NCBI GenBank assembly: GCA_051313645.2
Contig: JBNRSN020000010.1
Location: 36,146,001-36,210,000 of the forward strand
Direction: 5' to 3'
DNA length: 64,000 nt
From: Centroscyllium fabricii
Taxonomy: Eukaryota
Part shown: positions 5,254-56,400 of the stretch, in pieces
How positions within the stretch are numbered: the stretch's first letter is position 1
How the letters are laid out: each line of letters starts with the position of its first letter
The notes under the pieces: generated by a model
Seen by the model: only the letters and a program-made list of their open reading frames with translations
What the model was told of the DNA's origin: nothing
The model's database searches: none
Program-made: the position numbers and the translations under genes

Positions 5254-5265
5254 TCGGGGTCACCA
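5254..5265 (-). promoter_or_regulatory. Primer-binding site complementary to tRNA-Trp 3' end
   Basis: TGGTGACCCCGA, one base after the 5' LTR on the minus strand. Confidence 0.8.
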
Positions 5266-12519: not shown

Positions 12520-15500
12520 TGTGGTAAACCACTCTTTGTATATATATGTATATATTGTTGTAATCGCCTTTTCGCTATGTTGTATTATAGTTCTCTGTAT
12601 GCGATCACCTGGACATGCCCATGCTGGCCCCGCCTGCAACTCCTCCCTCCCAGGACCTGGTATATAAGCGGCCGTCTCCCTTCCCCCAGCCATTCCTGGC
12701 GACGGTCGACTAGCTGGTGCATGTCCACCTTTAGCTAATAAAAGCCTATAGTTTTCACCTCTTAATAACTCGTCTCCGAGGTCGTTAATTCGGTAACAAT
12801 TTTATTAGCTAAATTTGACGATGGAATTGATGCTCAAGCCAGCAACGTTCGAACTGGACCCCCAGACACCAGGCGCATCAAATACCTTTACGCACTGGTT
12901 CGACTGCTTTGATGCATTCATCAAGGCGAACGCAGCGGTCGTCGGGACCAAGGAAGACAAACGGCGTCTTCTCAATGCCCGGGTGGGCCCTCAGGCGTAG
13001 ACGCATCATCGTACGTAGATGCAATCTGGATCCTCAAAGCGAAGTACAACCGGCCACCCAACATCGTCCACGCCAGACACCTCCTGGCTACCAGAAGACA
13101 GCAACCCGGTGAGTCCAACGTGGAGTTCCTACGCACGCTGAGAGTACTCTCCCGGGCCTGTAACTGCAGATCGCAATCAGCCCAGGTCCATGTGGACAGC
13201 CTGATCAGGGACGCGTATGTGACGGGCCTCAGGTCGGACTATATTAGACAAAGGCTGTTAGAACAGAACGGCCTTGACCTGCAGGCGACAGCGGACCTGG
13301 GCAACGCGCTGGATGTGGCATCTCTAAATTTGTCATCATATTCCGGCAACTACGCGGGCCCAGCCCCGACAAATTGGACATCGCCGGCGCCGCGACTGGC
13401 GGAAGAAATGACTGCGGCCGCTCACTCTAAGATGGCCAAATGCTACTTCTGCGGGCAGTCTCAGCATCCGAGACGGAACTGCCCGGCAAAAGACGTGACC
13501 TGCTCGAAATGCGGCAAAAAGGGACACTATGCCAAAGTCTGCAGAGCAACTGCAACGCCGCAACCGAAACCGGGCAGTGCCGCATGTGGGACGTGGGGGC
13601 AGCCATCTTGGACACAGCCATCTTCAATACAGCCCATCGCGTGGCAGCAGACGCCATCTTGGTCTCAGCCACCCCCTCCGCAGTACACCACATGGCGGCA
13701 GCCATCTTGAGGCCAGGCCCCAGACGACTTCTCTATGGATCAAGACGACTCGACCGACCCGATACTAGCATCCGTCACCTTGGATCAGAACAGGGCACAA
13801 CCACTCAGCAGGTCAATGATGACGGTGGAAGTCAACGGACAGGACATCGAGTGCCTCTTTGACAGCGGGAGTACGGTGAGTTTTGTCCACCCAGCAACAG
13901 TAAGGCGCCTCTCTCTTAAGGTTATGCCGGCGAGCCAAAAGATTTCCATGGCATCAAAGTCGGAATCCGCGGACGTCTCCAGACGTTGCGCGGTGGCTCT
14001 AACGGTACAGGGCGTGCACTTTAGCAATATTAAATTTTTCGTGCTGCCGCAGCTCTGCGCTCCATTATTACTAGGCCTGGATTTCCAGTGCCACCTCCAG
14101 AGCGTTACCATGGCGTACGGTGGGCCCCTTCCCCTGCTCACGGTCAGCAACCAGCGCTCCTCGCAGCATCCCCAGCGCGCTACCTGTGGCCTATCGACCC
14201 TTAAGGTCGCCCCTCCCTCGCTCTTTGCTAACCTCACCCCGGACTGCAAGCCCGTCGCCACCAAAAGTAGGCGCTACAGTGCCGGGGACATGGACTTCAT
14301 CAAGTCCGAGGTGAAGGGCCTCCTGAGGGAGGGGGTCATCGAGGCCAGTAACAGCCCTTGGAGGGCGCAGGTAGTGGTGGTGAAGACCGGAGCTAAGAAC
14401 CGGTAGTGGACTATAGCCAGACCATTAACCGGTTCACCCAGTTAGACGCGTACTCTCTTCCCCGGATAGCGGACATGGTAAATCAGATCGCGCAGTTTCG
14501 GGTCTTCTCAACTATAGATCTGAAGTCCGCGTATCACCAGCTCCCCATCCGCCCTGAGGACCGTCTCTATACCGCCTTCGAGGCTGACGGTCGCCTCTAT
14601 CACTTCCTCAGGGTTCCGTTTGGCGTCACGAATGGGGTCTCGGTCTTCCAAAGGGAGATGGACCGAATGGTCGATCAGTACGGGCTGCGGGCCACTTTTC
14701 CGTATCTCGATAATGTGACCATCTGCGGCCACGATCAGCAGGACCATGACGCCAACTTCCAGAAATTTCTCCACACCGCCAAAACACTCAACCTGACCTA
14801 TAACACTGAAAAATGTGTGTTCAGGACCACCCGCCTCGCCATCCTCAGCAGTGTTGTGGAGAATGGGGTCATCGGTCCCGACCCAGACCGCATGCGCCCC
14901 CTCCTGGAGCTCCCCCTCCCCCACTCCCTCAAGGCCCTGAAAAGGTGCCTGGGGTTTTTCGCCTATTATGCCCAGTGGGTCCCCAACTATGCGGACAAAG
15001 CTCGCCCACTACTCAAATCAACCTCATTCCCCCTGTCAGCAGATGCCCGCATGGCGTTCTGCGGCATTAAGGACGACATTGCAAAGGCAACGATGCACGC
15101 CGTGGACGAGTCCATCCCGTTCCAGGTTGAGAGTGATGCATCGGACTTTGCCCTGGCCGCCACCCTTAACCAGGCGGGCAGACCCATGGCCTTCTTCTCA
15201 CGTACCCTCCAGGGCCCCGAGACCCGTCACTCTTCCGTTGAGAAGGAGGCCCAGGCCATTGTTGAAGCAGTGCGTCACTGGAAGCACTACCTGGCCGGCA
15301 AACGATTTACCCTGCTGACTGACCAACGCTCAGTCGCTTTTATGTTCAACAACAAAGAGCGGGGTAAAATCAAGAATGACAAGATACTGAGGTGGAGAAT
15401 TGAGCTCTCCGCTTTCAATTATGATATCTTGTACCGGCCCGGGAAATTCAACGAACCCCCAGATGCCTTATCACGCGGTACATGTGCCAGCGCACAAGTG

Positions 15501-17088
15501 GACCGTCTCCAAACCCTGCACAACGACCTCTGCCACCCGGGGGTCACCAGGTTGGTCCACTTTGTTAAGTCCCGCAACCTCCCCTACTCCATCGAGGAGG
15601 TCAAGACCATGACCAGGAACTGCCAGGTCTGTGCGGAGTGCAAGCCGCACTTCTTTCGGCCAGACCGGGCGCACCTGATCAAGGCCACCCGCCCCTTTGA
15701 ACGACTCAGCGTCGATTTTAAAGGGCCCCTTCCCTCGTCCAACAGAAACGTGTATTTTTTGAACGTCATCGACGAGTGCTCGCGTTTCCCCTTCGCCATT
15801 CCCTGCCCGGACATGACCTCTGCCACTGTCATCAAGGCCCTCCACAGCATTTTCTCCCTGTTCGGCTACCCCAGCTACATCCATAGCGACCGGGGGGCCT
15901 CTTTCATGAGTGACGAGCTGCGTCAGTTTCTGCTAGCCAAAGGCATCGCGACTAGCAGGACTACCAGCTACAACCCCCGGGGGAACGGACAGGTAGAGAG
16001 GGAGAACGCCACGGTCTGGAAGGCCATCCTGTTAGCCCTATGGTCTAAAGGCCTCCCAGTCTCCCGCTGGCAGGACGTCGTCCCTGAAGCGCTCCACTCC
16101 ATCCGGTCACTCCTTTGTACGGCCACTAACACCACCCCTCACGAGCGACTTTTTGCCTTCCCTAGGAAGTCGGCTTCCGGGACCTCGCTGCCGTCATGGC
16201 TATCATCCCCGGGACCAGTCCTACTCAGGAAGCACGTGAGGGGCCACAAGTCAGACCCCCTGGTCGAACGGGTCCACCTCCTGCACGCCAATCCCCAGTA
16301 CGCCTACGTGGCGTATCCCGACGGGAGGGAGGACACCGTGTCCATCAAGGACCTGGCACCAGCGAGGGCCCCCAAAACCAGCCCCGCCCAGCAGCCCGCG
16401 CCCCCGCGCCTGCCAGCCACCCCACCTGGGCCACTGGCACCAAGGTACGCTCCCCAGTACGAGAATCCGGCACCACGGTACGTCCACCCGTAGGCAGCAC
16501 GGCATGGCCTCCGGCATGGCTCCATAGTGCACGCCCCCTAGAGTCAGACGACAAGGGGGAGAGCGCGCCGCCAACCGTCACCGCAAAGGCACCGACGAGG
16601 AACCGACCAACTCAACCGGCTATCTTACGCCCACCGACACCACCACCAGCGGTGCGACCAACTCGACCGGCTATCTTACGCCCGCCGACACCACCACCAG
16701 CGATGCGCCGGTCAACCAGGCTTACCAGGCCGCCTGAAAGACTGAACTTATAACTTAAAAGAACTGTCGCATTCACCCCGCTGGACTTTCATTTTAAAGG
16801 AGGGGTGAATGTGATAAACCACTCTTTGTATATATATGTATATATTGTTGTAATCGCCTTTTCACTATGTTGTATTATAGTTCTCTGTATGCGATCACCT
16901 GGACATGCCCATGCTGGCCCCGCCTGCGACTCCTCCCTCCCAGGACCTGGTATATAAGCGGCCGTCTCCCTTCCCCCAGCCATTCCTGGGGACGGTCGAC
17001 TAGCTGGTGCAGGTCCACCTTTAGCTAATAAAAGCCTATAGTTTTCACCTCTTAATAACTCGTCTCCGAGGTCGTTAATTCGGTAACA
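12520..17088 (+). mobile_element. Gypsy (Mag-like) LTR retrotransposon A, full length, non-tRNA PBS
   Basis: 279-bp LTRs at 12520-12798 and 16810-17088 (about 5 differences by eye). 5-bp TSD GACGT, PPT aaaggaggggtgaa. Gag has two CCHC knuckles, followed by PR FDSGS, RT YLDN, RH and IN. Confidence 0.95.
12821..16753 (+). pseudogene. Single gag-pol ORF of element A with a few disabling lesions
   Basis: ATG at 12821, break near 13000, in-frame TGA at 13708-13710, frameshift near 14404, then a 695-aa RT-RH-IN ORF (14406-16493). C-terminal RPPERLNL. Confidence 0.9.
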
Positions 17089-20619: not shown

Positions 20620-20660
20620 CAGTTCTGAAGAAAGGCCATCGACCTGAAACGTTAATTCTG
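20620..20660 (+). ncRNA. Minimal hammerhead ribozyme motif (Penelope pLTR)
   Basis: CUGAAGA-A-[AGG...CCU]-GAAA-CGUU with palindromic stem III AACGUU. Confidence 0.62.
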
Positions 20661-20780
20661 TTTCTCTCTCCACCGATGCTGCCTGGCCTGCTGAGTTTTT
20701 CCAGCGTTTTCTGTTGTTATTTAGAAACAAAAAATGCTGGAGATACTCAGCAGGCCAGGTAGCATCTGTGGAGAGAGAAA

Positions 20781-20820
20781 CAGAGTTAGCGTTTCAGGTC
20801 GATGACTCTTCGTCAGTTCT
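20781..20820 (-). ncRNA. Minimal hammerhead ribozyme motif (inverted pLTR)
   Basis: Minus strand CUGACGA-A-gaGUC auc GACcu-GAAA-CGCU. Confidence 0.5.
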
Positions 20821-21045
20821 GTTCTGTTTCTTTCTATTTCAGATTTCCAGCATCCGCAGTATTTTGCTTTTGTGCAGATAAAGTGATGTTGCTCTGCCAT
20901 TCTCTCTCCTCCACCTCCCCCCTCCCCCCCCACCCCCCCCCCCCACGCCCCAAAAGCTCATTCCAGACTTCCTCACACTCTCCAAAGGTTCTTTGTATGT
21001 TACTGTTAGCGCCGGGAAAGCAGTGCTCGGAGACCAACCACTTGA

Positions 21046-23978: not shown

Positions 23979-25420
23979 TTTAAAGGGACACTGGGGCCCG
24001 TTTTAAAGGGACACTGGGGGCCATTTTAAAGGGACACTGGGGGCTATTTTAAAGGGACACTGGGGCCCATTTTAAAGGGACACTGGGGCCCATTTTAAAG
24101 GGACACTGGGGGCCATTTTAAAGGGACACTGGGGGTTATTTTAAAGGGACACTGGTAGCCATTTTAAAGGGACACCGGGGGCCATTTTAAAGGGACACCG
24201 GGGGCTATTTTAAAGGGACACTGGGGGCCATTTTAAAGGGACACTGGGGGCCATTTTAAAAGGACACTGGGGCCCATTTTAAAGGGACATTGGGGCCATT
24301 TTAAAGGGACACTGGGGGCCATTTTAAAGGGGCACTGGGGACCATTTTAAAGGGACACTGGGGCCCATTTTAAAGGGACATTGGGGCCATTTTAAAGGGA
24401 CACTGGGTGCCATTTTAAAGGGACACTGGGGGCTATTTTAAAGGGACACTGGGGGCCATTTTAAAGGGACATTGGGGCTATTTTAAAGGGACACTGGGGG
24501 CCATTTTAAAGGGACACTGGGGGCCATTTTAAAGGGACACTGGGGCCCATTTTAAAGGGACACTGGGGGTCATTTTAAAGGGACACTGGGGGCCATTATT
24601 AAGCGACACTGGGGGACATTTTAAAGGGACACGGGGCCATTTTAAAGGGACACTAGGGGCCATTTTAAAGCGACACTGGGGGCCCTTTTAAAGGGACATT
24701 GGGGCCATTTAAAAAGGACACTGGGGTCCATTTAAAAAGGACACTGGGGGCCATTTAAAAAGGACACTGGGGCCATTTTAAAGGGACACTGGGGGCCATT
24801 TTAAAGGGAAACTGGGGGCCATTTTCAAGGGACACTGGGGGCCGTTTTAAAGGGTCACCGGGGGCCCTTTTAAAGGGAAACTGGGGGCCATTTTAAAGGG
24901 ACACTGGGGGCCATTTCAAAGGGACACGGGAGCCTATTTTAATGCGGCACACGGGGCCATTTTAAAGGGACACGGGGGCCATTTTAAAGGGGCATGGGGC
25001 CATTTCAAAGGGGCACGGGGGCCATTTCAAAGATGCACGGGGGGCCATTTTAAAGGGGCACAGGGGGCCATTTTAAAGGGGCACGCGGGGCCATTTCAAA
25101 GGGACCCGGGGGCCATTTTAAAGGGCATGGGGGGCCATTTTAAAGGGCATGGGGGCCATTTTAAAGGGGCATGGGGGTCTTTTAAAGGGGCACAGCGACC
25201 ATTTTAAAGGGGCACAGGGGGCCATTTTAAAGGGGCACGGGGGGCCTTTTTAAAGGGACACGCAGGACCATTTTAAAGGGACACTGGGTGCCATTTTAAA
25301 TGGACACTGGGGGCCATTTTGAAGGGACACTGGGGGCCATTTTAAAGGGACACTGGGGGCCATTTTAAAGGGACACTGGTGACCATTTTAAAACGACACT
25401 GGGGGCCATTTTAAGGGTAC
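23979..25420. repeat. 23-bp minisatellite (TTTTAAAGGGACACTGGGGGCCA)n, left part
   Basis: About 60 tandem, slightly variable units. Confidence 0.95.
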
Positions 25421-28400
25421 TGTGGTAATCATATTACCATTGTATATAGTTGGATTGTAGTTGTTCTGCACCACATGACCCATGTGTATAGTTGATTGGT
25501 GCATTGGATGTATTGGATGTAGAACACGGTTGTAAGGCCAGGTCAGCCACACCTCTAACTCCTCCGCTCAGGTGGGAGCCTTATAGGCGAGGTCTGCCCT
25601 GCCCCCAGTCATTCTGAGCCTGATGTTCGTCTGGAGGCTAGCTCCATCGTTAAGCTAATAAAAGCCTATAGTTAAGGTAACTACTCGTCTTTAGTCTTAT
25701 TGACGATACGTCAATTTTATTAGCTTAAATTTTAACATGAGCAGCCCAGCGTCTAACCAACAAGAACCACAGGCGATGCAAGAACCAGAGGCGGCCGCGG
25801 AAAGCCATGCAGTGAAACCGGACAGACTGGATGTAAATCCACAGGAACCAGACGCTGCTAACGCCTTTGAACAGTGGTTCGGCCTAGTCGAGGCCTACAT
25901 GAGGGCCGCAAAGGCAACGAGCGACGGGGACAAACTGAAGGTCCTCTCGTCCAGAATCACCAGCTGGGTATTCTCCTTCATCCGCGGCCTCACGACGTAC
26001 ACAGAGGCGGTGAAGAAACTGAAGGAATGCTACTTGCGCCCGGTCCACTCGGTCTATGCCAGACACGTCCTGGCGACCAGACAACAGCGGCTCGGTGAGT
26101 CGAACGAACAATTTCTGTTGGCGCTTAAAGCCCTCGCTCGGGCCTGTGACTGCCAGCCACGAACGGCGCAGGAGGAGACGAACCTCCTCATACGGGACGC
26201 ATACGTGGCTGGAATCAGGTCCAACCAGGCCCGCGAGCGGTTACTGGAAAAGGACACTCTGTCACTGGAGGATGCGATCTTCATCTCCAACGCAGTGGAC
26301 GGAGCGCGCCGCAAGCTAGAGGCGTATGGCGGCCAAGGCCCACACGATACCCTCGATCCCTGAGTGGCCCCACGACAGGTCGAGAACCCCACAACGGCAG
26401 CGGCAGCGGCGAAGACGCCGTAGGAGCGTAGATGCTACTTCTGCAGCCAGGGACAACACCTGCGAGCGAAATGCCCCGCGAAGAATGTGACCTGCGAGAG
26501 ATGCGGCAAGAAGGGACACTACGCCAGGGCCTGCAAATCGGCCCCAGCGCCCAGCTCCAGATCCAACAGCGCGGTCTGCGAGAGCTCCAACGCCATCCCA
26601 TGGCCTAAGGTAAACTGCTGTTGCAGCGCGACCCGGCAGCGGTCCGGGGGTAAACCACAGGCGTCTCTGTCTCCCATCCCTGTACGGCAGAGGCTGGCCG
26701 CGCGCACGGCACGGGCACCGCCACGCCAATGGCGGCCGCGTTCGGCCATGTGCGACACCCCAATGCCGCCACCTCGCCCAGCGCGGACCGCTGCGTGCGA
26801 ACCATGGGCACCGCCACCTCGTCCACCGCGGTCCGCCGCGTGCGAACCACGGGCGGCACCATCTCGTCCACCGCGGTCCACCGCATGCGAACCACGGGCG
26901 CCGCCATCTCGTCCACCGCGGTCCACCGCGTGCGAATCAGTGGCGCCGCCATCTTGCCCTCAGCGGCCAGCCATCTGCGACTCCCCGGCGCCGCCATCTT
27001 GTTTCCAGCGGCCAGCCATGTGCGACTCCCCGGCGCCGCCATCTTGTCCACCGCGGTCGGCTGCGTGCGACTCCCCGGCACCGCCATCTTGTTTCCAGCG
27101 GCCAGCCATGTGCGACCCCCTGGCACCGCCATCTTGTGCACGGCTCCAGCTAGCGGAGGGCCCCTACACACACACACTTCGGCCTCAGCCATTGTCGACC
27201 AGGCTAGGCCGCACACCCTATCAAATTCCATGATGGGGATTAAAGTGGACGGTCACATTACAAACTGCCTGTTCGACACCAGAAGCACAGAGAGCTTCAT
27301 CCACCCCGACACAGTGCGGCGCTACGCACTGCGGACCCTGCCCACGCGTTACCAAATCTCCCTTGCTTCAAAGTCCCACACGGCGGACGTCACCGGCTAC
27401 TGCTCCGTCACGCTCACAGTCAGGGACTGCGTGTACCGTAATTTTAAACTGTACATACTCCAGCAGTTGTGCGCCCCAGTCTTACTGGGACTGGATTTCC
27501 AGTGCCACCTGAAGAGCGTGACAATGGAGTTCGGCGGGACCCTGACCCCCTCACCGTCAGTAGCCGGGACAATCCCTTCCTAAAGCGGAGCCTGACTTGC
27601 GGCCTATCCACCCTGAAAGTCGACCCCCCCTCGCTGTTCGCCAACCTCAACCCCAACTGCAAACCTATTGCTACCAAGAGTCGGCGTTACAGTGCAGGGG
27701 ACCGGGCATTTATCAGGTCGGAAGTCGGGCATATGCTGCAGGAGGGGATAACGGAGGCCAGCACCAGCCCCTGGCGGGCCCAGGTCGTAGTGGTTAAGAG
27801 CGGCGAGAAACTGCGGATGGTGATCGATTACAGCCAGACAATTAACCGCTACACCGGGCTCGACGCCTACCCCCTTCCCCGCATCTCGGATATGGTTAAC
27901 CAGATCGCCCAGTATACGGTCTTTTCGACAATCGACCTTAAGTCGGCGTATCACCAACTCCCAATCCGGAAATCTGACCGCCAGTACACCGCCTTCGAGG
28001 CGAACGGTCGGCTCTACCACTTCCTCCGGGTCCCCTTCGGCGTGACCAACGGGGTGTCGGTATTCCAAAGGGAGATGGACCGTATGGTTGACCAGAACGG
28101 GTTGCAGGCCACCTTCCCCTACCTGGACAACGTGACCATCTGCGGCCATGACCAGCAGGACCACGATGCCAACCTTGCAAAATTTCTCCACACGGCGAAA
28201 CGGCTCGATCTCACATACAATAAAGACAAGTGTGTCTTTAGAACAGATCGGCTCGCTATCCTCGGATACATGGTGGAAAACGGGGTCCTCGGCCCCGACC
28301 CACAGCGCATGCGCCCCTTACAGGAACTGCCCCTACCTCACAACCCCAAGGCCCTGAGGAGATGTCTGGGATTTTTCTCCTATTACGCACAATGGGTTCC

Positions 28401-30438
28401 CCAGTTCGTGGATAAGGCCAGACCGCTCCTCAAGGCCGACGTCTTCCCCCTCTCGGTAGAAGCCCAAACGGCATTCGCCCTGATTAAGGAAGACATCATC
28501 AAGGCGACCATGCATGCCGTTGATCAGTCCATCCCTTTCCAGGTGGAGAGTGACGCTTCGGACTTTGCCCTTGCCGCCACCCTGAACCAGGCAGGCAGGC
28601 CCGTTGCGTTTTTCTCCCAGACCCTACAGGGACCCGAAACTCGCCACTCAGCAGTGGAAAAGGAGGCCCAGGCCATCATGGAGGCAGTGCGCTACTGGCG
28701 TCAGTACCTGGCCGGTAAGCGTTTTACCCTGCTCACCGACCAACGGTCGGTCGCGTTTATGTTTAACAATAAACAAAAGGGTAAAATCAAGAATGATAAC
28801 ATCCTGCGGTGGCGGATCGAACTCTCGACTTACGAGTATGACATTCTTTACCGCCCAGGCAAATGCAACGAACCCCCGGACGCACTGTCCAGGGGAACGT
28901 GCGCCAGCGCCCAGCTGGACCAGCTGAAGGCCCTCTACGATAGCCTCTGCCGCCCGGGTGTCACCAGACTCGCCCATTTCGTTAAGTCCCGTAGCCTCCC
29001 CTACTCCATCACGGAGATCAAGGCTATGACCCGAGAGTGCCCTGTCTGCGCCGAGTGCAAACCCCAATTTTACAGGCCAGACACGGCGCACATCATCAAG
29101 GCCACCCGCCCCTTTGAACGTCTGAGCGTGGACTTCAAAAGCCCCCTCCCCTCCACCGACCGCAACTCGTACTTCCTCACGGTCGTGGACGAGTTCTCCC
29201 GCTTCCCCTTCGCCTTCCCCTGCCCAGATATGACGAGCGCAACGGTGATAAGACACTTCACCACGCTGTTCGCCATTTTCGGTCTCCCCAGCTACATCCA
29301 TAGCGACCGGGGGTCGTCGTTCATGAGCGACGAACTGTGTCAGTTTCTGCTTCAGAAAGGGGTTGCCGCAAGCAGAATGACCAGTTACAATCCCCCGGGG
29401 GAACGGCCAGGTAGAAAGGGAGAATGGGATCATCTGGAAGGCAGTCAACCTGGCCCTGAAGTCCAGAGGCATTCCAGTGTCCCGTTGGCAGGCAGTGCTC
29501 CCAGACGTGCTCCACTCCATCCGCTCTCTGCTGTGTACGGCTACAAATGCTACACCTCACGATCTATTATTTTCCTTCCCCAGGAAGTCGACTTCGGGGA
29601 CAGCACTCCCACCGTGACTCACGACGCCGGGGCCGGTCTTACTTAGGAAACATGTCCGCAGCCATAAGACCGACCCCCTGGTGGAAAAGGTGCAGCTGCT
29701 GCACGCCAACCCGCAGTATGCCTACGTGCAGTTCCTGGACGGGCGCGAGGACACAGTTTCAATCAGAGACCTAGCACCCGCCGGGAGCACTATGGCAGAA
29801 CCCCCGGTCGAGCCTCAGCCCGACCAGCCACCATCTACCGAACACTGGCCTATATATCAACCAACATCCACCGATTACTGGCCTAGATACGCACACACAC
29901 CGGGGCCCCCGACGCTATCGGACGACAACCTAGGGCCGGACGCCACGATGCAGGCACTGTTGCCGGAGGACCCGACCCCGTCACCACAACCGGCACCAGC
30001 GCCGCTACCGGAACCCCAGCGGTCATCACGACAGACACGACCACCGGAAAGACTCATAGAAAATTGCTGATACGGACACATATATTTTTTTTGCACTGTT
30101 CCGTTCCATTCACCCCGCCGGACTCATTTTCAAAGAAGGGGTGAATGTGGTAATCATATTACCATTGTATATAGTTGGATTGTAGTTGTACTGCACCACA
30201 TGACCCATGTGTATAGTTGATTGGTGCATTGGATGTATTGGATGTAGAACACGGTTGTAAGGCCAGGTCAGCCACACCTCTAACTCCTCCCCTCAGGTGG
30301 GAGCCTTATAGGTGAGGTCTGCCCTGTCCCCAGTCATTCTGTGCCTGATGTTCGTCTGGAGGCTAGCTCCATCGTTAAGCTAATAAAAGCCTATAGTTAA
30401 GGTAACTACTCGTCTTTAGTCTTATTGACGATACGTCA
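25421..30438 (+). mobile_element. Gypsy (Mag-like) LTR retrotransposon B, full length, non-tRNA PBS, inserted in the minisatellite
   Basis: 293-bp LTRs at 25421-25713 and 30146-30438. 5-bp TSD GGTAC, PPT aaagaaggggtgaa, gag-PR-RT-RH-IN. Confidence 0.95.
25737..30070 (+). pseudogene. gag-pol of element B, with stops and frameshifts
   Basis: ORF pieces 25737-26363, 26487-27233, 26729-27583, 27469-29646 and 29681-30070. Two zinc knuckles, RT YLDN, IN SDRGSSF. Confidence 0.9.
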
Positions 30439-30625
30439 GGTACACTGGGGGCCATTTTAAAGGAACACTGGGAGCCATTTTAAAAGGACACTGGGAGCCA
30501 TTTTAAAAGGACACGGGGCCGTTTTAAGGGGACACTGGTGGCCATTTTAAAGGGACACTGGGGGCCATTTTAAAGGGACACGGGGGCCATTTTAAAGGGA
30601 CACTGGGGACCATTTTAAAAGGACA
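30439..30625. repeat. 23-bp minisatellite, right part
   Basis: The same unit resumes directly after the 3' LTR. Confidence 0.9.
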
Positions 30626-34413: not shown

Positions 34414-34623
34414 TGGACAATTGCAAGAAGTCACACAACACCAGGTTATAGTCCAACAGTTTTATTTTAAATCACAAGCTTTCGGAGCGTCTGCCCCTTC
34501 GTCAGGTGAAGGGGCAGAAGCTCCGAAAGCTTGTGATTTAAAATAAAACTGTTGGACTATAACCTGGTGTTGTGTGACTTCTTGCAATTGTCCACCCCAG
34601 TCCAACACCGGCACCTCCACATC
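34414..34623. mobile_element. Palindromic Penelope-type pLTR insertion carrying a hammerhead motif
   Basis: 87-bp inverted arms at 34414-34500 / 34508-34594 (1 mismatch). Flanking direct repeat GAGACTTATGGA (34406-34417 / 34624-34635). Minus strand CUGACGA-A-GGGGC agac GCUCC-GAAA-GCUU. Confidence 0.75.
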
Positions 34624-36798: not shown

Positions 36799-38397
36799 GG
36801 TGGGGAGTGAGAAATTTACGGAACCTTCTTCACGCCGCTGATGATTTTGGGTAGACTCCGTGATGGGGTGGAAGCTTGTCGGACCGAATCTCTTACTCCA
36901 CGCTTCCTTGTGCGTAAAACCTTGAGCCGCCTTCTCTTCACTGAGTGTAAGAGAGAAAGAGCACATTCTATCTGCGTGTCTCAATGAAATTTCCAACACT
37001 TTCGAGAATACTCAATCACAGTTTGTGTGAGTCACTCACCCAGGGGATAACCTTTGGCGTTTGGACAAACCCATTGAAATTCTCCCACTTTGTCTCCTCG
37101 TAGAATCATCTGCATAGAAGGAGACCATTTGGCCCACTGTGCCTGTGCTAGCTCTTTGAATCAGCTATTCCAGTTACTCCATTCCCGACCCTGCCCTTTC
37201 CCCAGAGATTGTTTTCCTTTTGAAAGTACGTAGCCAATTCCCTTTTGAAAGTTCCTATTGAATATGTTTCCATCCCAATTTCAGGGAGTATATTCCAGAT
37301 CAGCTCAAGTCACTGTGTTAAAAAACAATTCTCCTCATCTCCCCACCCTCCCCAACACCCTTTTTGTGGTTTGTGAGTTTATTCCAGGGAGATGCACAGT
37401 TTGGTGACATCCCCCTTCTCCCCCGCCACCATCCCTCCAATCTGACTTCCTAATCCAGGACACTGAAGGTGACAGTGGCACCTCAGCCATTGTCCAGCTG
37501 AGATCAGTTAACTCGGCATTGACCAGGGACTGACACTTGGGACACTCTTGGCCCCGATGCTTTCAGTTGCGCACTACGGAACTGTACCTATGAATCTGTT
37601 GGTGACCTGTTTGTTACAGTGCTGCCCGTAACCTAACTCGCACCAAGCCCTGTTCACCCAACAACCCTGGCTCCCGGTCGAGCAACATCGCGATTTAAAA
37701 ATTCTCATCCTTGTGTTCAAATCCCTCCATAGCCTTTCCCCTCCCTACCTCTGTAATCGCATCCAGCCTTACAACCAAATTTTCATTGTCAATGTTTGTC
37801 TGATGGTGTTCACGGTGGTTTGTTCATGTGGGTGTTGATGGTGTGGGTGTCAATGCTGGTGGTGTCGATGCTGGTGGTGTTGATGGTGTGGGTGTCGATG
37901 GTGTGGGTGTCGATGGTGTGGGTGTCGATGGTGGGGGTGTCGATGGTGGGGCTGTCGATGGTGGGGGTGTGGATGGTGGCGGTGTCGATGGTGGCGGTGT
38001 GGATGGAGGCGGTGTGGATGGAGGCAGTGTTGATGGTGAGGGTGTCGATGGTGAGAGTGTCGATGATGAGGGTGTCGATGGTGAGGGTGTCGATGGTGAG
38101 GGTGTCAATGGTGAGAGTGTCGATGGTGAGGGTGTCGATGGTGAGGGTGTCGATGGTGAGGGTGTCGATGGTGAGGGTGTCGATGGTGAGGGTGCCGATG
38201 GTGAGGGTGTAGATGGTGAGGGTGTCGATGGTGAGGGTGTCGATGGTGAGGGTGTCGATGGTGAGGGTGTCGATGTTGTGGGTGTCGATGTTGTGGGTGT
38301 CGATGGTGTGGGTGTCGATGGTGTGGGTGTCGATGGTGTGGGTGTCGATGGTGGGGGTGTCGATGGTGGGGCTGTCGATGGTGAGGGTGTCGACGGC

Positions 38398-38800
38398 GGC
38401 GGCACGGTGGCACAGTGGGTAGCACTGTTGTCTCACAGCACTGGAGACCCGGGTTCAAATCCAGCCTCGGGTACTATCTGTGTGGAGTTTGCACATTCTC
38501 CCCGTGTCTGCGTGGGTTTCCTCCGGGTGCTCCGGTTTCCTCCCACAGTCCAAAGATGTGCGGGTTAGGTTGATTGGCCGTGATAAATTGACCCTTAGTG
38601 TTAGGGGGATTGAATATGTGGGGTTACGGGGATAGGGTGGGATATGTGTCAGTGCAGGCTCGATAGGGATCGAGGGATATGGGGACAAGGCAGGGGTGGG
38701 GTACTGGGTTTGGATGATCAGCCATGATCTCATTGAATGGCGGAGCAGGCTCGAAGGGCCGAATGGCCTACTCCTGCTCCTAGTTTCTATGTTTCTATGA
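38398..38800 (+). mobile_element. HE1-like V-SINE fused to a CR1 3' end (copy 1)
   Basis: tRNA head plus V-domain, switching after ggctcgat to a CR1 3' UTR ending ctatgtttctatg. Confidence 0.85.
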
Positions 38801-40847
38801 TGTTGTGTGTGTCGATGTGGGTGTCGATGGTGAGGGTGTCGACGGTGTTGCTGGTGATGGTGTTGATGGTGAGGGTGTTGATGGTGAGGGTGTTGATGGT
38901 GAGGGTGCTGATGGTGAGAGTGTTGATGGTGAGAGTGTTGATGGTGAGAGTGTCGATGGTGAGGGTGTCGATGGTGAGAGTGTCGATGGTGAGGGTGTCG
39001 ATGGTGAGGGTGTCGATGGTGAGGGTGTCGATGGTGAGGGTGTCGATGGTGAGGGTGTCGATGGTGAGAGTGTCGATGGTGAGGGTGTCGATGGTGAGGG
39101 TGTCGATGGTGAGAGTGTCGATGGTGAGGGTGTCGATGGTGAGGGTGTCGATGGTGATGGTGTTGATGGTGATGGTGAGAGTGTTGATGGTGAGTATGAT
39201 GATGGTGAGTGTTGATGATGAGAGTGTCGATGGTGATGGTGTTGATGGTGAGGGTGTTGATGGTGACGATGTCGATGGTGAGGGTGTCGATGGTGAGGGT
39301 GTCGATGGTGAGAGTGTTGATGGTGAGGGTGTCGACAGTGAGGGTGTCGATGGTGAGGGTGTTGATGGTGAGGGTGTTGATGGTGACGATGTCGATGGTG
39401 AAGGTGTCGATGGTGAGGGTGTCGATGGTGAGGGTGTCGATGGTGAGTGTCGATGGTGAGGGTGTCGATGGTGAGGGTGTCGATGGTGAGGTTCTCGATG
39501 GTGAGGGTGTTGATGGTGATGGTGTTGATGGTGAGGGTGTTGATGGTGTGGATGTCGATGGTGAGGGTGTCGATGGTGATGGTGTCGATGGTGAGGGTGT
39601 CGATGGTGAGGGTGTTGATGGTGAGGGTGTTGATGGTGACGATGTCGATGGTGAAGGTGTCGATGGTGAGGGTGTCGATGGTGAGGGTGTCGATGGTGAG
39701 AGTGTTGATGGTGAGGGTGTCGATGGTGAGGGTGTCGATGGTGAGGTTCTCGATGGTGAGGGTGTTGATGGTGATGGTGTTGATGGTGAGGGTGTTGATG
39801 GTGTGGATGTCGATGGTGAGGGTGTCGATGGTGATGGTGTCGATGGTGAGGGTGTCGATGGTGAGGGTGTCGATGGTGAGGGTGTCGATGGTGAGGGTGT
39901 CGATGGTGAGGGTGTCGATGGTGAGGGTGTCGATGGTGAGGGTGTCGATGGTGATGGTGTTGATGGTGATGGTGAGAGTGTTGATGGTGAGTATGATGAT
40001 GGTGAGTGTTGATGATGAGAGTGTCGATGGTGATGGTGTTGATGGTGAGGGTGTTGATGGTGACGATGTCGATGGTGAGGGTGTCGATGGTGAGGGTGTC
40101 GATGGTGAGAGCGTTGATGGTGAGGGTATCGACAGTGAGGGTGTCGATGGTGAGGGTGTTGATGGTGAGGGTGACGATGTCGATGGTGAAGGTGTCGATG
40201 GTGAGGGTGTCGATGGTGAGGGTGTCGATGGTGAGAGTGTCGATGGTGAGGGTGTCGATGGTGAGGGTGTCGATGGTGAGGTTCTCGATGGTGAGGGTGT
40301 TGATGGTGATGGTGTTGATGGTGAGGGTGTTGATGGTGTGGATGTCGATGGTGAGGGTGTCGATGGTGATGGTGTCGATGTTGAGGGTGTCGATGGTGAG
40401 GGTGTTGATGGTGAGGGTGTCGATGGTGAGAGTGTTGATGGTGAGGGTGTCGATGGTGAGGGTGTCGATGGTGAGGTTCTCGATGGTGAGGGTGTTGATG
40501 GTGATGGTGTTGATGGTGAGGGTGTTGATGGTGTGGATGTCGATGGTGAGGGTGTCGATGGTGATGGTGTCGATGGTGAGGGTGTCGATGGTGAGGGTGT
40601 CGATGGTGAGGGTGTCGATGGTGAGGGTGTCGATGGTGAGGGTGTCGATGGTGAGAGTGTTGATGGTGAGAGTGTTGATGGTGAGGGTGTTGATGGTGAG
40701 GGTGTTGATGGTGTGGATGTCGATGGTGAGAGTGTCGATGGTGAGGGTGTCGATGGTGATGGTGTCGATGGTGATGGTGTCGATGGTGAGGGTGTCGATG
40801 GTGAGGGTGTCGATGGTGAGGGTGTCGATGGTGAGGGTGTCGACGGC

Positions 40848-41250
40848 AGCGGCACGGTGGCACAGTGGGTAGCACTGTTGTCACACAGCACTGGAGACCC
40901 GGGTTCAAATCCAGCCTCGGGTACTATCTGTGTGGAGTTTGCACATTCTCCCCGTGTCTGCGTGGGTTTCCTCCGGGTGCTCCGGTTTCCTCCCACAGTC
41001 CAAAGATGTGCGGGTTAGGTTGATTGGCCGTGATAAATTGACCCTTAGTGTTAGGGGGATTGAATATGTGGGGTTACGGGGATAGGGTGGGATATGTGTC
41101 AGTGCAGGCTCGATAGGGATCGAGGGATATGGGGACAAGGCAGGGGTTGGGTACTGGGTTTGGATGATCAGCCATGATCTCATTGAATGGCGGAGCAGGC
41201 TCGAAGGGCCGAATGGCCTACTCCTGCTCCTAGTTTCTATGTTTCTATGA
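40848..41250 (+). mobile_element. HE1-like V-SINE fused to a CR1 3' end (copy 2)
   Basis: Nearly identical to 38398-38800, offset by 2450 bp. Confidence 0.85.
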
Positions 41251-43659
41251 TGTTGTGGGTGTCGATGGTGAGGGTGTCGACGGTGTTGCTGGTGATGGTG
41301 TTGATGGTGAGGGTGTTGATGGTGAGGGTGTTGATGGTGAGGGTGCTGATGGTGAGAGTGTTGATGGTGAGAGTGTCGATGGTGAGGGTGTCGATAGTGA
41401 GGGTGTCGATAGTGAGAGTGTCGATGGTGAGGGTGTCGATGGTGAGAGTGTCGATGGTGAGGGTGTCGATGGTGAGGGTGTCGATGGTGAGAGTGTCGAT
41501 GGTGAGGGTGTCGATGGTGAGGGTGTCGATGGTGAGGGTGTCGATGGTGAGGGTGTCGATGGTGAGGGTGTCGATGGTGAGAGTGTCGATGGTGAGGGTG
41601 TCGATGGTGATGGTGTTGATGGTGATGGTGAGAGTGTTGATGGTGAGTATGATGATGGTGAGTGTTGATGATGAGAGTGTCGATGGTGATGGTGTTGATG
41701 GTGAGGGTGTTGATGGTGACGATGTCGATGGTGAGGGTGTCGATGGTGAGGGTGTCGATGGTGAGAGTGTTGATGGTGAGGGTGTCGACAGTGAGGGTGT
41801 CGATGGTGAGGGTGTTGATGGTGAGGGTGTTGATGGTGACGATGTCGATGGTGAAGGTGTCGATGGTGAGGGTGTCGATGGTGAGGGTGTCGATGGTGAG
41901 AGTGTCGATGGTGAGGGTGTCGATGGTGAGGGTGTCGATGGTGAGGTTCTCGATGGTGAGGGTGTTGATGGTGATGGTGTTGATGGTGAGGGTGTTAATG
42001 GTGTGGATGTCGATGGTGAGGGTGTCGATGGTGATGGTGTCGATAGTGAGGGTGTCGATGGTGAGGGTGTCGATGGTGAGGGTGTCGATGGTGAGGGTGT
42101 CGATGGTGAGGGTGTCGATGGTGATGGTGTTGATGGTGAGGGTGTTGATGGTGTGGATGTCGATGGTGAGGGTGTCGATGGTGATGGTGTCGATAGTGAG
42201 GGTGTCGATGGTGAGGGTGTCGATGGTGATGGTGTCGATAGTGAGGGTGTCGATGGTGAGGGTGTTGATGGTGAGGGTGTTGATGGTGAGGGTGTTGATG
42301 GTGTGGATGTCGATGGTGAGGGTGTCGATGGTGAGGGTGTTGATGGTGAGAGTGTTGATGGTGAGGGTGTTGATGGTGAGGGTGTTGATGGTGATGGTGT
42401 TGATGGTGAGAGTGTTGATGGTGAGGGTGTCGATGGTGAGGGTGTCGATGGTGAGAGTGTTGATGGTGATGGTGAGAGTGTTGATGGTGAGTATGATGAT
42501 GGTGAGTGTTGATGGTGAGAGTGTCGATGGTGATGGTGTTGATAGTGAGGGTGTTGATGGTGAGGGTGTTGATGGTGATGGTGTCGATGGTGAGGGTGTT
42601 GATGGTGAGGGTGTTGATGGTGATGGTGAGAGTGTTGATGGTGAGTATGATGATGGTGAGTGTTGATGGTGAGAGTGTCGATGGTGATGGTGTTGATAGT
42701 GAGGGTGTTGATGGTGAGGGTGTTGATGGTGAGAGTGTCGATGGTGAGAGTGTTGATGGTGAGGGTGTCGATGGTGAGGGTGTCGATGGTGAGGGTGTTG
42801 ATGGTGAGGGTGTTGATGGTGATGGTGTCGATGGTGAGGGTGTCGATAGTGAGGGTGTTGATGGTGAGGGTGTTGATGGTGATGGTGTCGATGGTGAGGG
42901 TGTTGATGGTGAGGGTGTCGATGGTGAGGGTGTCGATGGTGAGAGTGTCGATGGTGAGAGTGTTGATGGTGAGGGTGTCGATGGTGAGGGTGTCGATGGT
43001 GAGGGTGTCGATGGTGATGGTGTTGATGGTGAGAGTGTTGATGGTGAGTATGATGATGGTGAGTGTTGATGGTGAGAGTGTCGATGGTGATGGTGTTGAT
43101 AGTGAGGGTGTTGATGGTGAGGGTGTTGATGGTGATGGTGTCGATGGTGAGGGTGTTGATGGTGAGGGTGTCGATGGTGAGGGTGTCGATGGTGAGAGTT
43201 TTGATGGTGAGGGTGTTGATGGTGACGATGTCGATGGTGAGGGTGTCAATGGTGAGAGTGTTGATGGTGAGGGTGTCGATGGTGAGGGTGTCGATGGTGA
43301 GGGTGTTGATGGTGAGGGTGTTGATGGTGTCGATGTCGATGGTGAAGGTGTCGATGGTGAGGGTGTTGATGGTGAGGGTGTCGATGGTGAGAGTGTTGAT
43401 GGTGAGGGTGTCGATGGTGAGGGTGTCGATGGTGAGGTTCTCGATGGTGAGGGTGTTGATGGTGATGGTGTTGATGGTGAGGGTGTTGATGGTGATGGTG
43501 TCGATGGTGAGGGTGTCGATGGTGAGGGTGTCGATGGTGAGGGTGTCGATGGTGAGGGTGTCGATGGTGAGGGTGTCGATGGTGAGAGTGTTGATGGTGA
43601 GAGTGTTGATGGTGAGGGTGTTGATGGTGATATTGTTGATGGTGAGAGTGTTGATGGTG

Positions 43660-44242
43660 CGGGCCTTTGTTGGGCCGTGGTCAGTAAATGTCTAGCATAG
43701 ACATCGTTTGGTGCCTTAGTATATAGTTCTGTCAGTGCTTGGATTACCTCATTATAGTTATCCAGTTTATCAACATATTCATGTATGTTTGGGGACACAT
43801 AATTCACAAGTAACCGTAGTTTGGTAGAGGCATCCTCATAACATTCTTCAAGAAAATTCTCAAAAGTATGGAACCAATGCTTCCATACCTTGGCAGCTGC
43901 TGGTCCATTTGGGTCCAGATCCAGGCGAGTCGGTTTGAGGAGGCTTTCCATGATGGGTTGGTCCCTGGATCCTCAGTTCCGTGCTGTCCAAAAGTTTTAA
44001 AGATTTTGAGCGTGAAGTTTTTAGTGGATTAAATTGATGTAATAATGGAGTCTGATACATCAATAACTTCTTTAATCCACTATATTATCACTATGTACAA
44101 AGATGGGTTTTATTATGCTTTCAGGTGAAGCGTTCACCCCATACTGAGCAGTTCCAGTATTTATACTAACAGAAAACAGGAAGTGACATGTACAGAGTTC
44201 ACCTCTTAGCCTTCCCCCGGAAGTCTGTTCAATATTACCACA
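43660..44242 (-). mobile_element. Truncated Gypsy (Mag-like) element C: 5' LTR (44035-44242), non-tRNA PBS and gag N-terminus
   Basis: TGTGGTAAT...ACATCA LTR. Gag MESLLKPTRLDLDPN...WKHW...YARHLL (ATG at 43951) is homologous to the Gag of A, B and D. Satellite lies on both sides. Confidence 0.85.
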
Positions 44243-44851
44243 GTGAGGGTGTCGATGGTGATGGTGTTGATGGTGAGGGTGTGGATGGTGATGGTGTCGA
44301 TGGTAAGGGTGTCAATGGCGATGGTGTCAATGGTGAGGGTGTCAATGGTGAGGGTGTCGATGGTGAGGGTGTTGATGGTGAGGGTGTTGATGGGGAGAGT
44401 GTTGATGATGAGGGTGTTGATGGTGAGGGTGTCGATGGTGAGGGTGTCGATGGTGAGGGTGTCGATGGTGAGGGTGTCGATGGTGAGGGTGTCGATGGTA
44501 TGGGTGTCGATGCTGAGGGTGTCGATGCTGAGGGTGTCAAAGGTGAGGGTGTCGAAGGTGAGGGTGTCGATGGTGAGGGTGTCAATGGTGAGGGTGTCAA
44601 TGGTGAGGGTGTCGATGGTGAGGGTGTCGATGGTGAGGGTGTCAATGGTGAGGGTGTCGATGGTGAGGGTGTCGATGGTGTGGGTGTCGATGGTGTGGGT
44701 GTCGATGCTGAGGGTGTCGATGTTGAGGGTGTCGATGTTGAGGGTGTCGATGCTGAGGGCGTCGATGGTGTGGGTGTCGATGTTGAGGGTGTCAGTGGTG
44801 TCAATGTTGAGGGTGTCGATGGTGTCTGTGTTGGTCAGTCATAGAGTCACA

Positions 44852-47635: not shown

Positions 47636-47885
47636 GTGAGGGTGCCGACGGTGAGGATGTAGACAGTGAGGGTGTCGACGGTGAGGGTGTCGACGGTGAG
47701 GGTGTCGACGGTGAAGGTGTCGACATTGAGGGTGCCGATGGTGAGGGTGCCAATGGTGAGGGTGTCGATGGTGAGGGTGTCGACGGTGAGGGTGTCGATG
47801 TTGAGGGTGCCGATAGTGAGGGTGCCGATGGTGAGGGTGTCGATGGTGAGGGTGTCGATGGTGAGGGTGTTGTTGTGGGTGTGGG
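47636..47885. repeat. Distal block of the 15-bp satellite
   Basis: Same GTGAGGGTGTCGA(T/C)G unit. Confidence 0.9.
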
Positions 47886-53432: not shown

Positions 53433-56400
53433 TGTGATGAACCTTTTGGTGTGGTTCACACTGTACGGTTATTGTATGTAGTTCTGTTTAATGTGTTTGT
53501 TATATATCTTGTTATATATCTGTTAATGCCTTTATCTTTCTGTAAGGACCTGTACCGGCTGACCCCACTTCTGGGTGCTAGTATAAAGGAGAACGCTTCG
53601 CCCACTTATCTCTCATTCCAGGCAGACTCATCGGGGATACGGTTCAGTTCCTTGTTAATAAAAGCCTTGTAGCGCCGGCAGGCCCAAAAACCACACGTGA
53701 GCCAGAGCTAGAGAAAAACACAGCTTTACTGAACAAGTAAAAAACAAGAAAGAGGCAGAACCACTCAGGACAGGCTTATTTAAACGGTCCCGCGGTTGGT
53801 GACGTCATCGCGTCGGCCGACGTGATGACGTAGTCGCGTCACCCGGATGAGCGGGGCTCTGCTCCGCGGAGTCCCCGTGGCGGATTCGATATCCCCGTGG
53901 GTGTACCGCCACAGCCTCTTTATTAAGAAACTCGCTACCGTCATAATTTGAGGTATCTCAATTTTATTAACAAGAATTTTAAAATGAGCCAACAGCAGCA
54001 GAACGAAAATCAGCAGCCAGCAGCATCGGAGAGTTGGAAGACAATTGTAAAACCGAAAACTCTTGACCTCAACCCCCAGGCACCGAACGCGTCGAATGAT
54101 TTTGAACACTGGCTAAGCTGTTTCGAGTCGTACCTTGTCGTGGCCGGAGTCAGCGATGCGCACAAGAGAAGAGTCCTGGTCTCCTGCGTGAGTGGCAGGG
54201 TGTATTCCCTAATTAAGAATGCAACGGAATACAATGCAGTGATGGAGCTGCTGAAGGCTCGATATCTCCAGCCAGTCAACGCGGTCTATGCTCGCCATCT
54301 ACTCGCCACGCGGCGGCAACAGCATGGTGAGTTGAATGAGGAGTACTTGGAGGCTCTTCAAGCTCTTGTTCTGTGCTGCGGATGCGCCCCTGTTAACACC
54401 CAGGAGCACATGGAACTCATCGTCCGCGATGCCTATGTGGCGGGCATCAGATCGGCCCCAGCCCGCACCCGCCTGCTCGAGCAGGATAACGTATCCCTTA
54501 ATGAGGCAGTGAAACTTTCCAACGCGGTGGATGGGGCCCTCCGGAGCCTAGATTCGTACACCGGGCACGGCTCCCACATGGTTTCCCCTGGGCCTTGGGA
54601 CTCGCGTTCGACGCACTCGACGGCAACCGTTGCGGCCACGACGCCATCTAGGCCGCCAGCGCCTCCAAAATGCTTCTTTTGCGGCCAGAAACGCCATCCA
54701 TGAAGCTCCTGCCCAGCGAAGGTGTCTTCATGCTCCAGATGTGGCAAGAAGGACCATTTTGAAAAGGTCTGCCGATCGGCCCCGGAATCAGCCCGGAAAA
54801 CGGCAGCGGCCTGCGATGTCCATGCCACAGAGTGGCCTCAGGTACCTAGCGCGCCCCGACAGCGACCCTCGCAGAAATCGCAGCCCTCACAGAACTCGCA
54901 GAAATCGCAGCCCTCGCAACAATCAGTACAGCGGTCCTCTGAACGATCGCCACCTAGCCTACCTCAAATGCGGCCTGCCGTCGTATTTTCCCGCACTCCG
55001 CCATCTTTGGGGGCGCGGGCATCTTCTTCTCCGGTCGTTTCCCGCGCTCCGCCATCTTTGGGGGCGCGGGCATCTTCTTCATCGCCGGTTTGGCGCGAAT
55101 CGCGAGCACCATCTTGGATCATGGCAGCAGCGGCCCCGTCCCAGCCCAGGGCACCGCCATCTTTGATCAAGTCAACTCGGATCCTGGCAGCAGCGGCCCA
55201 GTCCCAGCCCAGGGCACCACCATCTTTGATCCAGTCAACTCGGATCCTGGCAGCAGCCTCCCAGCCCATGGCGCCGCCATCTTTGATCCAGTCAACTCTA
55301 CCGAGGCAGCAGTGGCCCAGTCCCAGCCCAGGGCGCCGCCATCTTTGATCCAGTCAAGTCTACCAATGCTGGCAGCAGCAACAGGCAGCTCAGGAGCAAC
55401 TCCACTGATCCTGGCTGCAGCAACAGGCAACTCTGGGGCAATTCAGCATTCTGGCACTTGTACGCCACAAGCCCTTCGGTCCTCCCAACGGCTTTCCCAG
55501 CGACCCACCCAGCAGTCCTCCCAATGGCCCAAAACGCCACCGCGGCCGGCCGCGTGCGAATCACGGGCGCCGCCATCGTTCGCAGACCTGATAACGCCGG
55601 ACCCTGCATTGCACAAGGGCCCCAGGGCGCACACCACACTTGCCTCTACGGCCCTCAACCAGTCTCTACCTCATCCTCTCATGTCATCGATGATGCCCAT
55701 CTGGGTGGAGGGGCACCTCACCCGATGTCTGTTCGACACTAGGAGTACGGAGAGCTTCATACACCCTGATATGGTGCGCCATTATTCCCTCAGGGTTAGG
55801 CCCACACATCGTAAAATCTCCCTCGCTTCCGAGTCCCAGACTGTGGACGTCATCGGCTGCTGTACAGTCACCATTACCGTGAAGGGGTCGACATACCGCG
55901 ACTTTCAACTGTACGTCCTCCCACAGCTCTGCGCCCCTCTGTTGCTTGACCTGGACTTCCAGTGCAACCTGCAGAGCGTGACGATGGTGTACGGCGGTCC
56001 CCTGCCTCCTCTCATGGTCAGCAGCCACGACTGCCCTGCCTCACAACCACACTCCTCTTGCGGTCTGTCTTCCTTGAAGATAGACCCCCCCTCACTGTTC
56101 GCCAACCTTGACCCTGACTGCAAGCCCATTGCAACCAAGAGTCGGCGATACAGCGCGGGGGACCGGACCTTCATCAAGGCAGAGGTTGCTCGGTTGTTGC
56201 GGGAGGGCATCATTGAGGCCAGTAACAGGCCGTGGCGGGCCCAAGTGGTGGTGGTTAAGTCTGGCGACAAACAGCGCATGGTCATCGACTATAGCCAGAC
56301 TATTAACCGCTACACTGGGCTCGACGCTTATCCGCTTCCTAGAATCAATGACATGGTCAATCAGATTGCTCAGTATAAGGTCTTCTCCACCATCGGCCTT

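Follow-up and report, generated by a model that had tools for sequence, protein, structure and literature searches.

A stem between the primer-site position and the long terminal repeat points to probable self-priming in a Ty3/Gypsy family of Centroscyllium fabricii

In a Ty3/Gypsy family of Centroscyllium fabricii, the position of the primer site is taken by a sequence that pairs with the element's own long terminal repeat (LTR), and we propose from sequence comparisons, with a probability of roughly 0.8, that this stem serves tRNA-free self-priming of reverse transcription. The best reading of our data is Tf1-like self-priming in what appears to be a clade outside the chromoviruses. Hiding the poly(A) hexamer of the 5' LTR would likely be a second role of the same stem in the families of this genome.

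The window, by which we mean the whole 64,000-nt stretch of DNA that was analysed (contig JBNRSN020000010.1, positions 36,146,001 to 36,210,000), is a cluster of retroelements in a 7.2-Gb genome. One of these, element C, is the 5' end of a Ty3/Gypsy copy on the minus strand, consisting of an LTR (44242–44035), a leader and about 97 gag codons, and the window copy has its 5' LTR only. Its features, in window coordinates, are listed below.

44035–44242, minus strand: 5' LTR of element C, TG...CA, 208 nt here against 216–217 nt in intact relatives
44158–44165, minus strand: TATA-like box TATAAATA, found in most relatives, with a putative promoter role
44109–44114, minus strand: AATAAA unique to the window copy, with G>A at 44114 and 44113; relatives have GGTAAA
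44086, minus strand: family C LTR position 157, where two short read-through copies stop (n = 2); tentative primer 5' end
44071–44082, minus strand: LTR arm, predicted 3' end of the self-primer, terminating in ATTAAA (44076–44071), the family's likely poly(A) hexamer
44069–44070, minus strand: site of a 9-nt deletion in the window copy; predicted cut between 44071 and 44070
44035–44062, minus strand: U5 hairpin with 7-bp arms, predicted by RNA folding, inside the loop and adjoining the primer site
44022–44033, minus strand: primer-site arm, beginning 2 nt past the LTR end, with an unpaired A at 44034 and without TGG
43660–43951, minus strand: gag start, about 97 codons; the remainder of element C is absent
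37830–43663, no strand assigned: 15-bp tandem array in the expected place of the element C body
44243–44824, no strand assigned: 15-bp tandem array on the other LTR flank, with the same unit as the 37830–43663 array

Three further elements of the window, A, B and D, have a stem at the same place, and an unrelated Gypsy element provides a control.

12520–12798, plus strand: 5' LTR of element A, with TATA at 12661, initiator A at 12692 and arm at 12730–12743; primer-site arm at 12800–12813
25421–25713, plus strand: 5' LTR of element B, with initiator A at 25611 and arm at 25650–25663; primer-site arm at 25715–25728
53651–53974, plus strand: element D, with arm 53651–53663 and primer-site arm 53962–53974, 13 bp, and an insert of ~240 nt between them (read by eye)
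5263–5265, minus strand: TGG primer site of the control, a CsRN1-type Gypsy element with a DUF7041 gag

The insert in element D (~53668–53913, ~240 nt), again read by eye, has TG...CA ends and a short duplication, begins 4 nt past the arm and splits the stem. Elements B and C are each embedded in a minisatellite array, of 23-bp units (23979–25414 and 30438–30625) and 15-bp units (37830–43663, 44243–44824 and 47636–47870), respectively. The polypurine tracts of A and B pair with sequence about 22 nt upstream to give 10-bp hairpins at 16770–16811 and 30107–30147, structures of a kind for which a search has been called for (PMC3601003). Long inverted repeats are also found in the window, at 34414–34594 (87-nt arms, 99%, 7-nt spacer) and 20620–20821 (96-nt arms, 85%).

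The stem of element C was reproduced exactly, with 12 perfect pairs between arms 44082–44071 and 44033–44022 on the minus strand and a 37-nt loop. A stem of at least 12 bp to the first five post-LTR offsets appeared in 3 of 20,000 dinucleotide shuffles of the element C LTR. The short loop had been read as a feature of element C, but it results from a 9-nt deletion in the window copy and was ruled out as a trait of the family: the loop of intact family C copies is 46 nt, comparable to the 47–56 nt of most sister-family loops. In 3'-end register, differences between the C arm and the arms of A, B and D number 4, 5 and 4 out of 12, which amounts to a third to 40% and not to the half originally estimated; to call the C stem the most divergent version is fair, C lying on a different RT–RNase H branch from A, B and D.

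The original prediction also pointed to a separate, unpaired AATAAA upstream of the stem as an argument for priming over pure poly(A) masking. This hexamer is indeed present at 44114–44109, outside the stem, but as a signal of the family it does not hold up: created by two G>A changes (GG>AA), it is private to the window copy and occurs in 0/108 relatives (0/29 best matches and 0/79 family C LTRs, the latter sampled via a motif just downstream of its position), which rules it out as the family's real poly(A) signal. The only canonical hexamer of family C is therefore the ATTAAA inside the stem, which at the end of the C arm occupies the place of the AATAAA in A, B and D, likewise inside the stem. 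It follows that element C alone cannot separate priming from masking; the argument from the unpaired hexamer fails, while the conclusion it was meant to support is upheld by other evidence, presented below. Compared with one relative (L043), all five LTR substitutions of the window copy are G>A (44121, 44114, 44113, 44104 and 44083) and lie within 40 nt, a pattern that looks like clustered deamination, position 44104 being polymorphic across family C.

The predicted LTR boundary is borne out by full-length relatives. We fetched 20 family C relatives with downstream DNA, out of the best 40 genomic matches, and all 20 keep the LTR end (TACATCA, or close to it), with a single A and then the pairing arm behind it, while a TGG tRNA site after the LTR was found in none of them (0/20). 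Target duplications of 5 bp flank 11/11 two-LTR copies checked (7 perfect, 4 with one mismatch), in which 3–10 substitutions separate the two LTRs. A polypurine tract precedes the 3' LTR, gag is followed by protease, RT, RNase H and integrase in the order of Ty3/Gypsy elements, and the length between outer LTR ends is 4.2–5.3 kb. The layout of family C, an LTR end followed by the primer-site arm, recurs at 1,380 genomic 5' junctions, and exact LTR motif matches in the genome number 7,118 for C, 13,135 for A and 1,004 for B.

Family C also shows a deletion hotspot right after the arm (LTR positions 164–185), with deletions of 3–18 nt in 19/79 LTRs versus 4 elsewhere in the LTR, and 48/100 5' junctions versus at most 28/100 3' LTRs are shorter by at least 3 nt (Fisher p = 0.005). 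The located deletions cover LTR positions 173–174 in 13/13 and 6/6 cases, the centre of an 8-bp palindrome containing AGCT. We do not count this hotspot as a priming scar, because the deletions differ between both LTRs of one copy, LTR pairs never sharing one, and because families A and B have no hotspot after the arm (0/30 each). Hairpin breakage and AID-like deamination are candidate causes. One common 16-nt loop deletion is found in ~50 C-family LTRs, many also with common upstream variants, perhaps representing a sub-lineage that spread. At the first base past the primer site, changes were seen in 7/63, no clear excess given similar counts at +34 (6) and +51 (8).

In the mechanism that we propose, the transcript would fold and thereby pair the arm with the primer site, and the RNA would be cut just after the ...TAAA end of the arm, probably by RNase H, by analogy with Tf1, which primes with its first 11 bases, cut by this enzyme (PMC7175516, PMC4600332, PMC5341516). 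The freed 5' RNA piece would prime the minus strand across a loop of 21–66 nt, and the short minus-strand product would transfer to the 3' LTR copy. Later, the plus strand would copy the attached primer, regenerating the site and keeping the arms matched, so that the two arms would change together. The primer of family A would extend from the transcription start to the arm end, ~52 nt, and that of family C may be shorter, as discussed below. In every family that has a canonical hexamer, it lies at or past the arm end, a placement that the scheme would need to provide overlap for the first strand jump.

A primer made from the element's own RNA should leave a trace in DNA, since a plus strand running past the primer site would continue as the LTR reverse complement and end at the RNA 5' end. 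In integrated family A copies, the plus strand does pass from the primer site into the LTR reverse complement, and the genome contains 268 such fold-back junctions. We examined the first 82, of which 64 have a long forward LTR, or 55 once shared junctions were removed. After removal of one further shared junction, 39 independent end points lie in LTR 100–206, with 24 at 172–177 (11 of them at 173), 12 at 182–206 and 3 at 126–162; the peak at 172–177 has a binomial p of ~1e-20 against a uniform distribution, and only 2 end points fall in LTR 127–171. Position 173 is the A of the TATA-plus-initiator motif (12692 in the window), which had been picked before the result of the end-point search. End points at 58 and 88 are halts of the aligner at subfamily indels. 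The short-ended copies whose LTR start was located (23/25) begin at the genomic flank, not at the polypurine tract, and 5-bp target duplications flank 9/9 testable short copies (7 perfect), indicating that the fold-back predates integration.

Family B behaves consistently, with 17/18 matches parsed and 10 carrying a long forward LTR; 8 of these end at 190–218, where the predicted start is 191, and 2 end at position 1. The 8 internal end points give a boundary and no sharp peak (n = 8), and fold-backs in both A and B stop 38–39 nt upstream of the arm. For family C, 0/58 junction matches stop at the TATA-predicted start. These matches are mostly reverse-strand LTRs with the 16-nt deletion, caught because U5 is palindromic, and this first pattern was rejected as priming evidence; the 3 with a full forward LTR run to positions 1, 1 and 13. 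A shorter pattern gave 10 matches with 2 new short read-throughs; a stop at 157, which is four bases ahead of the arm, would fit both and hints, from these two copies only, at a primer of ~16 nt. Fold-backs give strong direct evidence in A and consistent evidence in B. In C they give little, and the case for self-priming there comes from homology, the missing tRNA site and these two copies.

The fold-back data also bear on which RNA would act as primer. About 21 of the 64 family A fold-backs extend into or through U3, and these need a DNA template, so DNA fold-back must occur too. Many A copies consist of two complete LTRs in inverted orientation that meet at the primer site and terminate precisely at LTR position 1; these are likely folded plus-strand DNA that integrated. 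The ~21 A copies and 3 C copies that cross U3 to the LTR start could, on the other hand, reflect a U3-containing primer. This, together with the position of the arm end at the poly(A) region or immediately ahead of it, would suit self-priming from the RNA 3' end, with the arm of the 3' LTR trimmed to the duplex, or from short LTR transcripts acting in trans. We consider such priming unlikely, because internal end points fall most often at the predicted start and not in U3, and because the run-throughs end at LTR position 1, as folded plus-strand DNA would. Moreover, the forward and inverted parts carry the same subfamily alleles in 32/32 scorable A copies (6 and 2 minor alleles among them), evidence against a mixed pool of RNAs acting in trans. 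As the chief caveat, the same fold-back product would arise if a plus strand switched to co-packaged RNA that had not been cut.

Self-priming from the 5' arm is further supported by the recurrence of the stem. A metagenome search returned 80 loci, and we examined the 24 in which the match starts near the gag start. A perfect stem of 11–17 bp is found at the junction in 14/24 (~8 families), and 2/24 have a 9-bp stem interrupted by a mismatch. In L193 the arms sit at opposite contig ends, giving a split stem. The stem is absent in 7/24, of which L227 is degraded and L188, L194, L195, L219, L230 and L233 are without an intact junction; L230 and L233 are identical in sequence and show a TGG at +4, within what resembles the start of an insert. 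Among viral contigs, no relatives were found. A set of 16 clean stems, picked for perfect pairing, shows no TGG after the LTR (0/16), whereas the CsRN1-type control in the window has one; a complement of 12–15 bp to the element's own LTR begins 2 nt past the LTR. RNA folding gave a mean pairing probability of 0.88–0.99 in 17/17 folds.

The hexamers in these stems address a distinctly unlikely alternative, in which the stem only masks the poly(A) signal of the 5' LTR against premature 3' end formation and some other, unseen primer is used. Masking alone could explain why a canonical hexamer (AATAAA or ATTAAA) ends the arm in 11/16 stems, as well as the hexamer inside the family C stem and a pairing partner that is present only beside the 5' LTR. 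It would also fit an older fifth family (30 of 150 matches read), where 7 stems of 12–14 bp carry mirrored AATAAA/ATTAAA and T/C swaps, the others being decayed or interrupted, and where the hexamer swaps only between the two strongest versions. Poly(A)-occlusion hairpins of the 5' LTR in HIV-1 and other retroviruses bury the hexamer in a stem, as here; unlike in those hairpins, the partner in the present families is found beyond the LTR, at the primer-site position and in place of a tRNA site. Masking would, however, leave the element without a primer site, does not account for a partner that invariably begins 2 nt past the LTR, and makes no prediction of fold-backs ending at the initiator. 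It also fits poorly with GTTAAA or TTTAAA in the arm of 5/16 stems, 2 of which (L184 and L186) have a free canonical hexamer in the loop, although the signals of the metagenome hosts may differ.

Among the 16 stems, the G ten bases from the arm 3' end is invariant (16/16), and the two bases after the arm are G or A, then C, in 15/16, the exception being the deleted window copy; these bases are possible cut-site determinants. A splice acceptor within the arm was considered and not adopted, the G being present in 16/16 but AG in 14 only, with pairing that continues through the AG.

Sequence variation between families is informative about the identity of the primer. Nine of the first 12 stem positions vary among the 16 perfect stems, and pairing at positions 5–12 between arms and sites of different families is full in 0/240 combinations, with a mean of 4.8/8. 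Within family A, compensatory variants were seen in 3/30 loci read (L138, L142 and L125), and the mirrored swaps of the fifth family are compensatory too. It is thus very improbable that an internal tRNA fragment primes in the style of copia-type half-tRNAs, with the LTR match as a by-product; such priming exists and needs no TGG (PMC6317226), but one host tRNA would keep the site constant, and the site instead varies over at least a dozen families, each version matching its own LTR only. Chance or an assembly artefact, for which one could cite a truncated window copy within a tandem array, has a negligible probability given the shuffling result, the 1,380 genomic junctions of like layout and the stem on unrelated metagenome contigs.

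We next place the putatively self-priming families by their proteins. Most of the best 120 of 2,075 protein relatives have gag and pol joined in one chain of ~1,200 aa, and their sources are crustaceans, cnidarians, a tunicate, a nematode and cartilaginous fishes. In an RT–RNase H tree (35 rows, best single segments of at least 200 residues, midpoint root, with the CsRN1-type element as the only outgroup), family C (L039/L040) groups 100/100 with crustacean, cnidarian and tunicate elements, a tunicate protein falling within its subclade, whereas A, B and D group with shark and ray proteins, apart from C. Family C is ~74% identical to one relative in RT–RNase H, and its placement among invertebrate elements raises horizontal transfer as a possible explanation. 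No Chromo family was detected at E 0.1 in C integrase segments or in 3 full-length relatives, nor does one appear in the domain lists of the best 120 of 2,075 relatives.

Cigr-1 of Ciona intestinalis measures ~4.2 kb and has a single ORF of ~1,210 codons between short LTRs. We take the present elements to resemble the Cigr-1 clade (Ciona intestinalis; molluscs), a lead that draws on its general description only; they are similarly 4.2–5.3 kb long, and many relatives among the best 120 of 2,075 measure 1,175–1,260 aa. The MolGy clades or the Mag C-clade are possible alternative assignments (PMC6238403), this source giving names and accessions, with no sequence or primer-site data found there.

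The closest mechanistic parallels are Tf1 and Tf2 of Schizosaccharomyces pombe and Tj1 of S. japonicus, self-primed Ty3/Gypsy chromoviruses that, like the present families, are without a tRNA site and have a primer site complementary to their own LTR-derived RNA (PMC7175516, PMC4600332, PMC5341516). In both cases, the primer would be released by cleavage at the 3' boundary of the paired stretch, an event that is only predicted here. Unlike in Tf1, the 14-nt arm of family A, which overlaps the poly(A) hexamer, lies ~38 nt downstream of the inferred start, and, unlike in Tf1 and the sushi chromoviruses, no chromodomain was found in the present families; because of this and of the apparently internal arm in A and B, we do not file them with Tf1/sushi. 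Self-priming is mentioned for chromoviruses (PMC3601003), and it has been predicted from sequence for the plant elements Tcn1 (Gypsy) and TAR (Copia), also without a tRNA site (PMC6317226), which differ from the present families in lineage and host. No description of self-priming in the present clade was found in the open-access literature searched, and an earlier description may exist elsewhere.

Among the papers covered, only fission-yeast Tf1 has been shown to self-prime, with predictions for its kin and a few plant lineages. The mechanism itself is known; its use by this animal Gypsy clade with an internal arm would be a new variant of Tf1-like priming. Somewhat better than even, in our estimate, are the odds of a wider proposal: that an animal Gypsy clade of sharks and rays, crustaceans, cnidarians, tunicates and a nematode evolved self-priming apart from Tf1/sushi, with an internal arm that would both hide the 5' poly(A) signal and mark the cut freeing a long capped primer, of a length that may vary between families (~52 nt in A, perhaps ~16 nt in C), and with mis-copied insertions that would retain this primer and give the transcription start from DNA alone. 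Element C contributes little to this picture by itself, since it is a single dead copy on a second branch. Fold-back copies offer a DNA-only readout of primer ends and start sites. tRNA 3' fragments silence retroelements by targeting the tRNA primer site (PMC7472051), and a clade without such a site would be missed by LTR finders that require one. A very abundant clade of a vertebrate genome that needs no tRNA would, in addition, evade silencing by tRNA 3' fragments.
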